This document shows, one piece after another, positions 19,145-22,201 of a DNA stretch of 64,000 bases. This DNA comes from Escherichia coli (GTDB lineage Bacteria > Pseudomonadota > Gammaproteobacteria > Enterobacterales > Enterobacteriaceae), in assembly GCF_030013595.1 (NCBI RefSeq), contig NZ_CP122770.1. One strand, 5' to 3'. Under the pieces are notes generated by a model, which saw only the letters and a program-made list of their open reading frames with translations, searched no databases and was not told the origin of the DNA. A program made the position numbers and the translations under genes. Every line of letters starts with the position of its first letter. Positions within the stretch are counted from its first letter, which is position 1.

Positions 19145-19655
19145 ATGTGCCCCTTCAGAGGAGCGAAAGCTCCTCCTGCCGTCCACTTCTTCGGGGTTTC
19201 TCCCCGCAGTGGACCTTTCCGATGGGGGCCCGTTTACCGCCTCACGGGACAGCTGTCCGGGGGCGGACGCAAAATTTTTTGCCGGGTTCATGGCTAAAAA
19301 TTTTGTGGCCGGTGCATCTCACCCTGGACAGATGGAACGGGAGGGGGTTACGTCTGCCCCCCGGAAAGTCCACAGCGGGAAACAGGCCGCAGGGGTGGCG
19401 GCAGGAGGGAGGACTGCTGCGCCATCAGGCGCAGTTTCCTCACACACCGTCAGGTGTGCAGGGAGCGCAGGTCACGGCGCGACAGGGGCGGCGCGACCGT
19501 AACGGTCGCTGCAAGCCCGGGTTTTCACGCATCGGACCGTAGCGGCAGCCCGAAACCGCGCCAGCGGGTTCGGCGGAGACTGGCGGGTGCGCCAGCAGCT
19601 GCCTGTCGGAGTCGGGCCTGACGACCGGATGCCGCCAGGCAGCCGGGAGCCGAAG
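19145..19655. repeat. GC-rich hairpin repeat family 1, copy 3 (5' of ssb)
   Basis: Aligns with copies 1 and 2 up to gccgggagccgaag, then diverges into intron. Confidence 0.65.
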
Positions 19656-20255
19656 TGGGCGGTGCGACAGGAAGTCGCTTAACGTATTGTTTTACATTGA
19701 TAAAACCAGCTATCCCATTAGCTGTAGCCTACCGGGACAGGCGTTGCCGGCAACGGCGGGGTCTGAAGCTCCCGGGACAACGAGAGCCGGGCGTCAGCCC
19801 GGGTAAAGCCCCGTGAGGGGCTTTACCTTGCTGCAAGCATCATGCGGCAGGAGAGCAAGGCTGGTCAGAAGGGTTAACACATGTGAACTGTTGATAAACA
19901 CCGTTATCGGCAACAGGCCAAAGATGCTGACAGGCCTGAACCAAAAGGTACGGGGTCCGGTTGCTACCTCGCGCACAGGGAGCACATGGGCGCAGAGACC
20001 CCCGGTGAAGAGACAGAACCCGCCCTGACCCTCTGTATGTTAAGCGGAACCTGGTAAACCCGTATCGCTGCCTCACAGGCAGGTGAACCGCAAGGAACAC
20101 TGTTAGCGGTGCGGGCATAGGAGGACGGAAAAAGCGAATGCCCGGCCGTAATAACCGGGATACGGGGCAGGTTCCCCGACGCGAAAGCGGGCAGACTTCC
20201 GTCTGGTCTTTAATTGCATGAAAAGCTGTAAAGCAGTCAAAAGGATATCAGCGAG

Positions 20256-21923
20256 ATGAATACACACATCAGTGTGTCCACGATACCCCACCCGACAGGC
20301 TGGCACACCATAAACTGGAAAGCATGCCATGCCCGGGTGCGAAAGCTACAGTTACGGATTGCAAAGGCAACCCGACAGCAACAATGGCGGCAGGTCAGAG
20401 AACTACAGCGCATCCTCACCCGCTCATTCTCCGGCAAAGCCGTGGCTGTCAGGCGTGTAACTGAAAATACCGGTAAAAGGACACCCGGTATTGACGGAAA
20501 AATATGGCACACACCGAAGGAGAAATGGGAAGGAATATGCAGCCTGAATCTGTGTGGTTACAGGCCACAGCCACTACGGCGAATACATATCCCAAAATCA
20601 AACGGCAAAACGCGACCGCTGGGCATACCCACAATGAGGGACCGGGCCATGCAGGCACTGTGGCTGCTGGCTCTGGAACCCGTATCCGAGACCACTGCTG
20701 ACCATAACAGCTATGGTTTCAGACCAATGCGCAGCACGCATGACGCCATTGAGTCCATTTTTCTGCGGATGAGCCAGAAAGTATCGCCCAAATGGATACT
20801 GGAGGGCGATATTAAAGGGTGTTTCGATAACATCAGCCATGACTGGCTGCTTTCCCATATTCCGATGGACAGGAGACTGCTTAAAAAATGGTTGAAAGCA
20901 GGTTACATGGAAAGAGGCGTGTTTAACCATACGAACAGCGGGACACCGCAGGGAGGCATCATATCCCCTGTTCTCGCCAACATGGCTCTGGACGGACTGG
21001 AGAAGGAACTGATGCAAACGTTCAGGAAAAGTGGTTATCACAGTGCAAAGCACCAGGTGAATTATGTGAGATATGCTGATGATTTCATCTGTTCAGGCAG
21101 CTCCCGTGAATTGCTGGAAAATGAGGTCAGACCACTGATTGCAGCTTTCATGCGCGAACGAGGGCTGGAACTGTCGGAAGAAAAAACAGCGATCACACAT
21201 ATAGATAAAGGCTTCGACTTTTTAGGGCAGAACGTCAGGAAGTACAACGGTAAAATGCTGATTAAACCGTCGAAGAAAAACCTGAAGAACTTCCTCTGTA
21301 AAGTCAGAGAAATAATTAAACGCAATCCGACGCTCCCGGCATGGAAACTGATAGGCCAGCTAAACCCGGTGATCCGGGGATGGGCTACCTATCACCGACA
21401 CGTCGTGGCGAAAGAAACATTTAATTATGTCGACACCCAAATCTGGCGAGCTATATGGCGATGGTGTGTAAGACGGCATCCCCGGAAAGGATTGCGGTGG
21501 ATCGCCGGACGATACTTCTCCTTTGAAGGCAGGCGCTGGATCTTTAAAGCCATAACCCCGGAAGGGAAAATTCTGACACTCTTCCGGGCAATGGAAACAC
21601 CGATAAAGCGCCATATAAAAATCAAAGGCGAAGCAACACCATACACCCCCGGAATGGAAATCTACTTTGAACGTCGTCTGGATCTAATCTGGAAAGGCAA
21701 ATCAAAGAAGATGAAGACAGTAGTTCAACTCTGGAAGAGGCAGGGGAAACACTGTCCGCAGTGCGGACAACTCATAACCAACCAGACCGGATGGAATATA
21801 CATCACCGGATCAGGAAAGTTATGGGCGGCAGTGACGAACTGACCAATCTCGAGTTGTTACATCCGAACTGCCACCGACAGTTACACAGCAGGGAAGCCG
21901 GTGCTCACCGAAAGCACTTATAA
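20256..21923 (+). CDS. Group II intron reverse transcriptase/maturase with C-terminal HNH
   Basis: 555 aa; YADD catalytic motif; maturase region; C-terminal CPQCG...HH...HPNCH zinc/HNH motif. Confidence 0.9.
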   Translation: MNTHISVSTIPHPTGWHTINWKACHARVRKLQLRIAKATRQQQWRQVRELQRILTRSFSGKAVAVRRVTENTGKRTPGIDGKIWHTPKEKWEGICSLNLCGYRPQPLRRIHIPKSNGKTRPLGIPTMRDRAMQALWLLALEPVSETTADHNSYGFRPMRSTHDAIESIFLRMSQKVSPKWILEGDIKGCFDNISHDWLLSHIPMDRRLLKKWLKAGYMERGVFNHTNSGTPQGGIISPVLANMALDGLEKELMQTFRKSGYHSAKHQVNYVRYADDFICSGSSRELLENEVRPLIAAFMRERGLELSEEKTAITHIDKGFDFLGQNVRKYNGKMLIKPSKKNLKNFLCKVREIIKRNPTLPAWKLIGQLNPVIRGWATYHRHVVAKETFNYVDTQIWRAIWRWCVRRHPRKGLRWIAGRYFSFEGRRWIFKAITPEGKILTLFRAMETPIKRHIKIKGEATPYTPGMEIYFERRLDLIWKGKSKKMKTVVQLWKRQGKHCPQCGQLITNQTGWNIHHRIRKVMGGSDELTNLELLHPNCHRQLHSREAGAHRKHL

Positions 21924-21927
21924 AGGC

Positions 21928-21963
21928 TTGAGCGGAGTGCGGGAAAACTCGCACGCTCCGTTC
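21928..21963 (+). ncRNA. Group II intron domain V (catalytic hairpin)
   Basis: gagcggagtgcgggaaaactcgcacgctccgttc fits the ~34-nt domain V pattern (AGC triad). Confidence 0.6.
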
Positions 21964-22201
21964 TTAGGGGGCGGCGGCGCAGCAATGTGCCGCTGCTACC
22001 CGACCAATAAAAGACAACCATAAACGGTGACAGTGTCACGGAATATCACATCTGTTCCTGGCATACAGCCATACACTACCTTCTGACCGGAAAGCCGGGC
22101 CGGCAGCGCCGCAGGCGCTGCACCCCGCGTTTCCGGCAGGCGTCAGCCTGCCAGGGGTTTTCGCGCGGGCTGACAGGCGGCCTCCACCGCCTGCCCCTGT
22201 A

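Follow-up and report, generated by a model that had tools for sequence, protein, structure and literature searches.

The group II intron EcI5 (E.c.I5) of plasmid pO157, a subgroup IIB1 intron with a CL1-type reverse transcriptase (RT), shares several features with an intron found in the window, by which we mean the whole 64,000-nucleotide stretch of Escherichia coli DNA analysed here. Both have a similar architecture and 5' end (GTGCGACAGGAAGTCGC in the window, GTGCGACATGAAGTCGC in EcI5), use A(-14) as IBS2a, encode an HNH domain, and reside in a plasmid leading region. EcI5 requires C-18, C-17, A-15, A-14, and T+5 in its target (PMC8643678), whereas the target of the window intron carries G at -17 and -15, and either A (window) or C (IncF-type site) at +5. 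EcI5 is also found at the apparent 5' end of a leading-region ORF (5' exon ATGCCAAAC...) and runs in the same direction as the leading genes, while the window intron is intergenic and antisense to them. The closest solved RT belongs to T.el4h (Th.e.I3; cryo-EM structures 6ME0 and 6MEC) of Thermosynechococcus, which is likewise of the IIB1/CL1 type. Its EBS2a-IBS2a geometry and the relation between RT residue 173 and target position -15 apply to the window intron as well (E166 with G-15), although T.el4h is cyanobacterial, thermophilic, and chromosomal, with a target sequence unrelated to that of the window intron.

A group II intron of the same length (2,343 bp) and in the same kind of place, the leading region, has been described in pHN7A8/FII-33 plasmids, as has a putative intron that moved into the IncI plasmid p15ESBL (PMC8765060; PMC10104558). 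Judging from these descriptions, they are very probably the same element as the window intron. The element and its location are thus already documented and the general picture is unchanged; in those papers we found neither the intron class nor its EBS/IBS pairings, and no mention of a Frpo-type module or of a distinction between cognate and secondary sites. Two further systems are similar in one respect each. IIC introns also insert beside structured, repeated DNA outside of genes, but they recognise a stem-loop and have neither an endonuclease domain nor EBS2. The window intron has an HNH domain, EBS2, and EBS2a, with specificity provided by base pairing, and the presence of HNH and EBS2 sets it apart from class C (IIC). 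Ll.LtrB, located in the relaxase gene of pRS01 and of the sex factor, likewise rides on a conjugative element and its spread is coupled to conjugation; it is a IIA/ML intron inserted in sense orientation inside an essential transfer gene, and its splicing is required for transfer.

We consider it highly probable that the window contains an intact and currently mobile IIB1 intron with a CL1-type protein, a relative of EcI5 and T.el4h, which homes to a repeat module and occupies a secondary site at this locus (Table 1). Comparison of positions 19000-22700 to the intron-free IncI plasmid pSa42-TC4 (L001) defines an insert of 2,343 nt: an identical prefix of 662 nt and an identical suffix of 696 nt abut without overlap in the empty site (...GCCGGGAGCCGAAGTGGGCG directly followed by CAATAAAAG...), and there is no target-site duplication. 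The insert is an intact group II intron with boundaries exact to the base. It begins with GTGCGAC and ends with CTACCCGAC; 5' GTGCG and 3' GAC fit the ends of group II introns (5' GUGYG, 3' AY), and the same intron ends recur at five different target sequences. The complete plus-strand intron proposed in an earlier note on this DNA is therefore borne out by Rfam, by protein domains, and by the exact junction in the IncI homologue, which is as predicted, while the ends given there (19655-22000) had to be corrected.

Table 1. Features of the intron locus and of the surrounding leading region (window coordinates).
Feature	Position	Strand	Evidence or remark
Complete group II intron	19662..22004	+	Exact insert relative to L001; Rfam matches; at least 99% identical in 1,003 PLSDB plasmid records
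5' part of domain I	19706..19855	+	RF02012 group-II-D1D4-7, 121.7 bits, E=3.8e-25
EBS2a (U)	19905 (intron position 244)	+	Pairs with A(-14) in every site examined
EBS2 (UCGGC)	19907-19911 (intron 246-250)	+	Pairs with IBS2 GCCG(A/G) at -13..-9 in every site examined
EBS1 hairpin	19963..19983	+	Loop CGCGCACA at 19970-19977; covariation of stem and loop between this intron and the variant
Intron-encoded protein, 555 aa (RT, maturase, DNA-binding/HNH endonuclease)	20256..21923	+	Pfam RVT_N, RVT_1, GIIM, HNH
Domains V and VI	21928..22004	+	RF00029 Intron_gpII, 55.2 bits, full-length model, ends on last intron base
5'-exon target	19648..19661	+	IBS2a A(-14), IBS2 GCCGA (-13..-9), non-canonical IBS1 (G)UGGGCG
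Predicted IBS3, C at +1	22005	+	The same base in each of the five different targets
Repeat copy 1	9190..9540	+	Core only
Repeat copy 2	12120..12619	+	End at 12619/12620 (GCCGAAGGTGTCC followed by CCGCCTCC) is a target of the EBS1 GGACAC variant, empty in the window
Long imperfect hairpin forming the core of repeat copy 3, predicted Frpo/ssi-type	19146..19485	+	Directly upstream of ssb; three-copy repeat
Repeat extension	19486..19655	+	Common to copies 2 and 3 and to IncF modules; holds distal part of target
GC-rich hairpin region	22124..22163	+	Resembles 12713-12752 after copy 2 (85%)
ssb	18561-19088	-	Core of copy 3 directly upstream
oriT inverted repeat and IncP/IncI-type nick motif	7706..7752	+	CAATTGTATAATCGCGCG/CGCGGTTATACAATTG, then ACATCCTG/T (7744-7752)
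nikA, nikB	Below oriT coordinates	-	Nick motif lies between nikA and the leading genes

Both Rfam matches exceed the respective gathering scores (34 for RF02012 and 40 for RF00029). As read off the sequence, domain V (~21930-21963) carries an AGC triad, and a bulged A is located 7 nt from the 3' end. The fit of domain I is based on the RF02012 match and on the comparison of intron variants, in which changes to the EBS1 hairpin and to the stem around it are compensatory. The intron-encoded protein passes TIGR04416 with 385 bits (cut-off 300) and contains the motif CxxC...HH...N...HxxCH; given that its HNH endonuclease motifs look intact, endonuclease activity is predicted. The RT of T.el4h (6ME0_C) is the best PDB match over the full length (E=1e-177), followed by LtrA of the ML lineage (6e-46), and the identity to the EcI5 RT is 56% over 548 aa. 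Considering that T.el4h and EcI5 are both classed as IIB1/CL1 (PMC8643678), we assign the window intron to subgroup IIB1 with a CL1 RT, an assignment based on the PDB match and the identity to EcI5. In line with this, residue E166 aligns with G173 of T.el4h and the window target has G at -15; Glu at this position has been associated with G(-15) in the target (PMC8643678), and E166 goes along with G(-15) in four of the five target sequences. With respect to identity, EcI5 itself is excluded by the 56% protein identity and the different target bases, and Kl.pn.I5 by its length of 1,910 bp (supplement of PMC3522654). Literature searches returned no name for the window intron in the Zimmerly bacterial group II intron database.

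Target recognition can be described in terms of EBS-IBS pairings. In IIB1 introns, EBS2a is located two positions 5' of EBS2 (PMC8643678), as is also the case here. The IBS2 and IBS2a bases are kept at every site: in the window, at the IncF-type and copy-2-type sites, and in gntU and rfbK. The C at +1 is invariant and would pair with an EBS3 in the coordination loop. EBS1 corresponds to GCGCAC (intron 310-315) and covaries with IBS1: GCGCAC goes together with GUGCGC, and GGACAC of the variant intron with GUGUCC, accompanied by compensatory changes in the hairpin stem. The window site is the exception, as EBS1 and IBS1 pair at only one of six positions in the canonical register. We suggest that pairing at this site is shifted by one position, with C309-C315 matching -1..-7 at six of seven positions and leaving one G-G mismatch; the loop CGCCC (20021-20025) could be an alternative partner, pairing with GGGCG of the window site at five of five positions. 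The complementarity between EBS and IBS raised in the earlier note thus holds at all sites for EBS2-IBS2 and, by covariation of the two variants, for EBS1-IBS1, while for the window copy EBS1 would pair in the shifted register only. Of two other assignments, CGCCC (intron 360-364) as EBS1, which derives from the window site alone, was set aside, since the variant intron and three further sites indicate the loop at 309-316; CGGUU (intron 297-301) as EBS2 was rejected, as it is part of a stem and has changed in the variant with no matching change in the target. The matched EBS1/IBS1 variants, along with a frequently used site that fits in a shifted register only, provide a natural test of how strictly IIB1 introns depend on IBS1, which bears on off-targets of EcI5-type targetrons.

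The sequence bordering the intron belongs to a repeat. Its core is present in three copies (9190-9540, 12120-12441, and 19158-19483), and the likeness of copies 2 and 3 extends over a further ~170 nt to ...GCCGAAG (12613 and 19655, respectively). The intron starts 6 nt beyond the end of this likeness, and of the target at 19648-19661 only the first 8 nt (AGCCGAAG) are part of the repeat. The earlier note had copy 3 running straight into GTGCGAC, with the intron at the edge of the hairpin. The two are indeed adjacent, but six nucleotides (TGGGCG, 19656-19661) intervene, and the core hairpin stops ~176 nt before the intron, which is located at the end of the repeat extension instead. In IncF plasmids, the intron target lies inside the repeated module and not at its edge. 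Copy 1 lacks the extension and therefore has no intron target, whereas the copy-2-type site is occupied in L009-L011 and, at the 5' junction, in L008. Downstream of the intron, the resemblance to the sequence following copy 2 was confirmed (Table 1).

The nick motif of oriT is placed between nikA, at lower coordinates, and the leading genes. By the polarity of IncP/IncI-type nick regions, the + strand is transferred and is also the one from which the minus-strand leading genes are transcribed. The intron therefore lies in the sense of the transferred strand (T-strand), just as had been proposed. Each of the three repeat copies flanks a block of minus-strand genes, on its 3' side as read along the T-strand, and folding of 19100-19661 as single-stranded DNA gave z=-10.1. 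Promoter activity of single-stranded DNA is known for Frpo of the F plasmid and has been proposed for the ssi repeats described in IncI leading regions (PMC11541004; PMC10104558). On the basis of the predicted fold, we consider the repeat next to the intron a Frpo/ssi-type element and a predicted single-strand promoter. A strict consensus scan of 19050-20300 on both strands found no sigma-70-like promoter, and we rejected a double-stranded promoter within the repeat as the driver of the intron on the same grounds.

The distribution of the intron in PLSDB, counted as records that match a 120-nt junction query over 80% or more of its length, points to two main types of site. The IncF-type site (GCCGAAG-GUGCGC/C, with the slash marking the insertion point) is occupied in 874 records and empty in at least 2,635; the window-type site (GCCGAAG-UGGGCG/C) is occupied in 132 and empty in at least 1,687. 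Both are the same upstream of -7 and differ in IBS1 and the 3' exon. Judged by its pairing potential, the IncF-type site is the best-matched home of the intron, and the window (IncI) site a secondary, less favoured target. The variant EBS1 region is present in only ~10 of 1,011 plasmids, and no adaptation of EBS1 is therefore seen. An IncF-type site occupied by a copy identical over all 2,343 nt to that at the window site is found in a plasmid of strain ETEC1739, and the window locus has its best match in this plasmid as well; outside of the intron locus the window and this plasmid are 98-99% alike and not identical. In experimental evolution, two replicate lines gained de novo junctions between an IncI plasmid and such an intron (PMC10104558). 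Together, the identical copies at different sites and these junctions point to recent movement and provide indirect evidence that the element splices and is retromobile. That the locus might merely hold a decayed or fortuitous RT-containing remnant is, by comparison, a negligible prospect: we found no support for it, the ORF is full-length, both intron ends are intact, domains V and VI are complete, and the identical copies at different sites and the experimentally observed movement speak against it as well.

We propose that the intron homes to a target of three parts, consisting of IBS2a/IBS2, the 6-nt IBS1, and C at +1 (IBS3). A(-14), GCCG(A/G), and upstream bases that we expect to be read by the protein would constitute the last bases of the Frpo/ssi repeat module. 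Given that this module has one orientation relative to transfer, all insertions by homing would run in T-strand sense and hence opposite to the leading genes; in other words, the orientation of the insertions follows from a target that sits in an element of fixed orientation. The window site was probably invaded from a co-resident plasmid, and the route would be ordinary endonuclease-dependent retrohoming into double-stranded DNA, a default pathway that should be open because the HNH motifs look intact. With the target located in the Frpo/ssi module, as newly detailed here, the intron can serve as a marker of lineages and may give rise to rearrangements of the leading region.

The earlier note had suggested retrohoming into single-stranded DNA next to a structured element, for which we obtained no specific support. 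In this scenario, the intron RNP would reverse-splice into the single-stranded transferred strand, either in the recipient or when displaced in the donor, with the nascent complementary strand acting as primer; T-strand sense and nearby hairpins would be prerequisites of insertion and not mere consequences of it. It would agree with the T-strand sense of all insertions in repeat modules and with the degenerate nature of the window site, i.e. its non-canonical IBS1 and unrelated 3' exon, as group II introns reportedly hit ectopic degenerate sites mostly as single-stranded DNA with primers supplied by replication (PMC7306698). Moreover, conjugation machinery can stimulate intron movement, according to Novikova 2014 as cited in that article, and the de novo insertions arose where plasmids were transferring (PMC10104558). 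However, the HNH motifs of the window intron look intact, its close relatives EcI5 and T.el4h use double-stranded DNA for retrohoming (PMC8643678), EcI5 in pO157 runs in the sense of the leading genes and hence as the complement of the transferred strand, and chromosomal copies exist. The orientation argument is also less powerful than it appears: because orientation is fixed by the target sequence, the three site types amount to one data point, effectively a single observation with a 50% chance. Predicted unpaired probabilities of the target on the transferred strand were mixed, not high, and uninformative. Nothing in the data requires invasion of the transferred strand, and we regard this route as improbable. 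The same low expectation applies to the broader idea of a lineage specialised on the flanks of single-strand promoters, which, at degenerate sites at least, invades the transferred strand while it is single-stranded during conjugation and is primed by complementary-strand synthesis. If true, spread among IncF and IncI plasmids would be coupled to transfer and the 2.3-kb direct repeats would rearrange anti-defence islands; a demonstration of transferred-strand invasion would link the spread of a retroelement to conjugation.

In the reading we prefer, the insertion leaves the predicted hairpin promoter intact and is probably close to neutral for the plasmid. An effect on the promoter on the ssb side, as considered in the earlier note, is unlikely, since the hairpin is undamaged and the intron is promoter-distal. 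It has to be considered that the ssi3 operon region next to the intron is a hotspot of adaptive changes that affect transfer rate (PMC10104558) and that 2.3 kb of intron separate the upstream operon from the repeat, which could suggest a function for the plasmid, by changing expression of the ssb-psiB operon or insulating it from the upstream operon, and retention of the intron on that account. The chances of this are very slim: in addition to the intact core hairpin and the lack of sigma-70-like matches on either strand of the scanned region, the majority of homologous sites carry no insertion, and FII-33 plasmids conjugate whether or not the intron occupies their IncF-type site (PMC8765060).

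The position of the target within a repeated Frpo/ssi module accounts for the near-confinement of the intron to IncF and IncI-complex plasmids and for the presence of up to four copies per plasmid. One IncFII plasmid carries four copies at the cognate site, corresponding to three distinct repeat modules and one segmental duplicate. When genomes representing individual species were scanned with the 5' end of the intron, two matches only were obtained, both at IncF-type sites on contaminant-like contigs, and no new sites were revealed; the 6.2-kb "plasmid" NZ_CP122760.1 was discarded as an independent site, as it is actually a fragment of a leading region. In E. coli genomes, 562 of 611 intron places are on plasmids. 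The 49 chromosomal places include ordinary genes (rfbK in sense, gntU in antisense orientation) as well as integrated plasmid DNA. Independent insertions into chromosomal genes were seen at two sites, rfbK and gntU, too few to judge a replication-strand bias; the copy in rfbK differs by one base.

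The sequence at window 19662-22004 (+) is a complete group II intron of 2,343 nt, beginning with GTGCGAC and ending with CTACCCGAC. Alignment of window 19000-22700 to the intron-free IncI plasmid pSa42-TC4 fixed its boundaries to the base: identical stretches of 662 bases (left) and 696 bases (right) abut at the empty site (...GCCGGGAGCCGAAGTGGGCG/CAATAAAAG...; the slash marks the junction) with no overlap or gap, and no target duplication is found in this comparison. Together with the Rfam matches to domains I and V-VI and the RT/maturase/HNH reading frame (table), this bears out the earlier note's recognition of a group II intron. 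The ORF scores above the cut-off of the NCBIfam equivalog model for group II RT/maturases and, on reading its sequence, the zinc-finger/HNH motif appears intact. Among proteins of known structure, the T.el4h/Th.e.I3 RT is nearest (6ME0; E=1e-177, end-to-end alignment), while LtrA is a much weaker match (6e-46). EcI5 and T.el4h are IIB1 introns with CL1 proteins (PMC8643678), and the window intron is assigned to the same class. EcI5 of pO157 has its first bases in common with the window intron, but it was rejected as the identity of the element, given that the RTs are only 56% identical; Kl.pn.I5, at 1,910 bp, was likewise rejected.

Features of the window and intron copies in other records
Feature	Record	Coordinates	Strand	Basis or remark
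nikB, nikA	window	~4.6-7.7 kb	-	annotation from NZ_CP122766.1
Nick motif ACATCCTG/T	window	7744-7752	+	follows inverted repeat
Repeat copy 1	window	9190-9540		core
Repeat copy 2	window	12120-12441		core
ardA	window	~12795-13295	-	
Second repeat family	window	13303-13656		
393-aa ORF	window	13743-14924	-	
Repeat copy 3	window	19158-19483		core
Long hairpin domain, copy 3	window	~19146-19485		predicted
Group II intron	window	19662-22004	+	
Domain I, 5' part	window	19706-19855	+	RF02012, 121.7 bits
Intron ORF	window	20256-21923	+	RVT_N, RVT_1, GIIM, HNH
Domains V-VI	window	21928-22004	+	RF00029, 55.2 bits, full model; last base is intron end
klcA/ardB-like	window	22859-23284	-	
Second repeat family	window	23292-23644		
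repZ pseudoknot	window	47388-47536		
C4 antisense RNA	window	48389-48476	+	Rfam, 77.5 bits
Intron in rfbK	NZ_CP126614.1	1501-3843		sense
Intron in gntU	NZ_CM180514.1	1501-3842		antisense
Intron and fragment, p746	NC_014234.1	2731-5428		variant
Four introns	NZ_CP090197.1	43392-45734, 61453-63795, 67132-69474, 76656-78998		antisense to leading genes
EcI5, pO157	NC_002128.1	35667-~38050		sense of leading genes

The window belongs to an IncI-type plasmid, with a repZ pseudoknot; the C4 antisense RNA match by the repZ region is unconnected with the intron. Gene annotation was taken from the close relative NZ_CP122766.1, offset by ~700-720 nt below window 13.7 kb. Window 13706-15035, in the ardA-psiA interval, has no aligned counterpart in that relative, the closest to the window, and is ~700 nt longer; it holds a 393-aa minus-strand ORF. 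Judged by its sequence, the inverted repeat followed by ACATCCTG/T on the plus strand is a nick region of the IncP/IncI type. With relaxases of this type the nicked strand exits 5' first and the DNA 3' of the nick leads. Motif and polarity make the plus strand the transferred one, with the leading region extending upward from ~7.75 kb. Since the leading genes (a 144-aa ORF, ardA, psiA, psiB, parB-like, ssb, klcA-like and methylase) all lie on the minus strand, the transferred strand serves as their template, in keeping with the leading-region literature (PMC11541004) and with the strand assignment made earlier.

Three copies of a repeat core of ~340 nt, which are ssi/Frpo-type elements of IncI leading regions (types described in PMC10104558 and PMC11541004), lie in this region, and copies 2 and 3 stay alike for a further ~170 nt, to ...GCCGGGAGCCGAAG (12613 and 19655). 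The predicted single-stranded DNA fold of 19100-19661 is much better than that of shuffled sequence (z=-10.1). The intron starts 6 nt past the end of the copy-2/copy-3 homology and ~176 nt beyond the predicted hairpin, so the insertion at the edge of a hairpin repeat described before holds for the homology but not for the hairpin itself. Because transcription heads to ssb, at lower coordinates, the intron lies on the promoter-distal side; hairpin and ssb operon are untouched, every gene nearby runs antisense to the intron, and a search around the intron's 5' end gave no promoter-like site. The proposed effect on ssb-side promoter function is unlikely. Most homologous sites are empty, FII-33 plasmids that have the intron, at the IncF-type site, are conjugative (PMC8765060), and nothing we saw points to a plasmid function. 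A second repeat family (two copies, 94-96% identical) lies directly upstream of the minus-strand anti-restriction genes ardA and klcA/ardB-like. It has an internal 32-nt inverted repeat, with arms ~175 nt apart, and a long imperfect hairpin predicted on the plus strand (z=-3.1); it may be another sort of single-strand promoter element.

Target recognition was read from the flanks of several further intron copies. The targets are AGCCGAAG-UGGGCG/C in the window and L005 (another copy at this type of site), AGCCGAAG-GUGCGC/C at the IncF-type site (L007, L013-L016), AGCCGGUG-GUGCGU/C in chromosomal rfbK (L004), AGCCGAGG-GUGCCU/C in chromosomal gntU (L006, a 98% variant) and AGCCGAAG-GUGUCC/C at copy-2-type sites of IncI plasmids (L008-L011, variant introns). 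Constant over these targets are A(-14), GCCG(A/G) at -13 to -9 and C(+1). EBS2 (UCGGC, intron 246-250) is complementary to GCCGA, and U244, two positions upstream, is able to pair with A(-14), by sequence the IIB1-type EBS2a-IBS2a pair (PMC8643678). In the RT, E166 is aligned to G173 of T.el4h, and position -15 of the target is G, an association (E/G) reported for the residue 173 equivalent in the same study. A hairpin at intron 302-322 presents EBS1 as its loop: GCGCAC of the common intron pairs perfectly with GUGCGC, and GGACAC of the variant with GUGUCC, with compensatory changes in the stem of this hairpin as well as in the stem enclosing it. The gntU copy predicted the variant at copy-2-type sites, which a later plasmid search confirmed. 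In the window, copy 1 is without the extension and so offers no target, whereas copy 2 ends in an empty target (12619/12620, GCCGAAGGTGTCC/CCGCCTCC) that perfectly matches variant EBS1; the rare variant occupies the equivalent site in other IncI plasmids.

While EBS1 and IBS1 covary elsewhere, the IBS1 of the window fits only a shifted register. Common EBS1 pairs with UGGGCG at 1/6 positions in the canonical register; shifted by one, C309-C315 pairs with -1 to -7 at six of seven positions, with a G-G mismatch at -4, a match expected by chance in ~0.1% per register (Watson-Crick only). This shifted helix is likely the EBS1-IBS1 pairing used here; alternatively, a different loop, CGCCC (20021-20025), matches over 5 nt. 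Counted with 120-nt junction queries (>=80% coverage, PLSDB plasmid records), the IncF-type site is occupied in 874 records and empty in at least 2,635, the window-type site in 132 and at least 1,687. The variant EBS1 region is present in only ~10 of 1,011 plasmids, and the two window-type occupants among the matches listed both carry the common allele. We infer that the window site is a secondary, register-shifted site. It has been used repeatedly: two intron alleles occupy it (the 100% type of the window and the 99.1% type of L005), and at least two flank lineages have the site. The window copy agrees at each of its 2,343 nt with an IncF-type-site copy on a plasmid of strain ETEC1739, which also holds the plasmid best matching the window locus; the simplest history is that the intron moved recently from a co-resident plasmid.

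The earlier note suggested retrohoming into single-stranded DNA. The window site, which is degenerate and has an unrelated 3' exon, would suit this, since invasion of degenerate sites is reported to rely mostly on single-stranded DNA and replication-derived primers (PMC7306698). All module insertions are in the transferred-strand sense, but the target belongs to an oriented element, so they count as one observation. Moreover, the endonuclease motifs look intact, close relatives invade double-stranded DNA efficiently, chromosomal copies occur in both gene orientations, and folding predictions give the target no unusual chance of being unpaired on the transferred strand. EcI5 in the pO157 leading region, in contrast to the window intron, corresponds to the complement of the transferred strand. 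We therefore did not uphold the proposal, and consider a requirement for single-stranded DNA improbable. EcI5 is located at the apparent 5' end of an ORF, with 5' exon ATGCCAAAC....

The earlier observation was correct, and both the element and its insertion at such a leading-region place are already known. A "2,343-bp group II intron" in the leading region marks an FII-33 sublineage, and FII-33 plasmids conjugate whether or not they carry it (PMC8765060; see PMC10654068); the junctions that arose de novo on an IncI plasmid in PMC10104558, in a host with the intron on an IncF and another IncI plasmid, were at the position used in the latter, by the ssi3 operon. What we add is the class assignment, an EBS/IBS map with natural covariation, a connection between the target and the Frpo-type module, and the reading of the window site as probably secondary and register-shifted. 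The intron is found in 1,066 PLSDB records (1,003 at >=99% identity), about half from Escherichia and half from Klebsiella, most of them conjugative, and in 343 of the 5,426 complete genomes of E. coli, with 562 plasmid and 49 chromosomal places. The interrupted rfbK (O9 phosphomannomutase) and gntU show that it can disrupt host genes at sites sharing AGCCG(A/G)NN-GUGC. The target of IncF plasmids is internal to a repeated module, each copy of which can take an intron. The IncFII plasmid NZ_CP090197.1 carries four full introns at the same cognate target in three distinct repeat modules; two of these introns stem from an ~18 kb segmental duplication. In p746, the copy-2-type site holds a full variant intron, and directly behind it comes a 357-nt piece from the 5' end of a second copy. 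From there the sequence skips to what corresponds to window 25860 and beyond; the ardA-to-methylase region is absent, and the arrangement looks like an intron-associated leading-region rearrangement.
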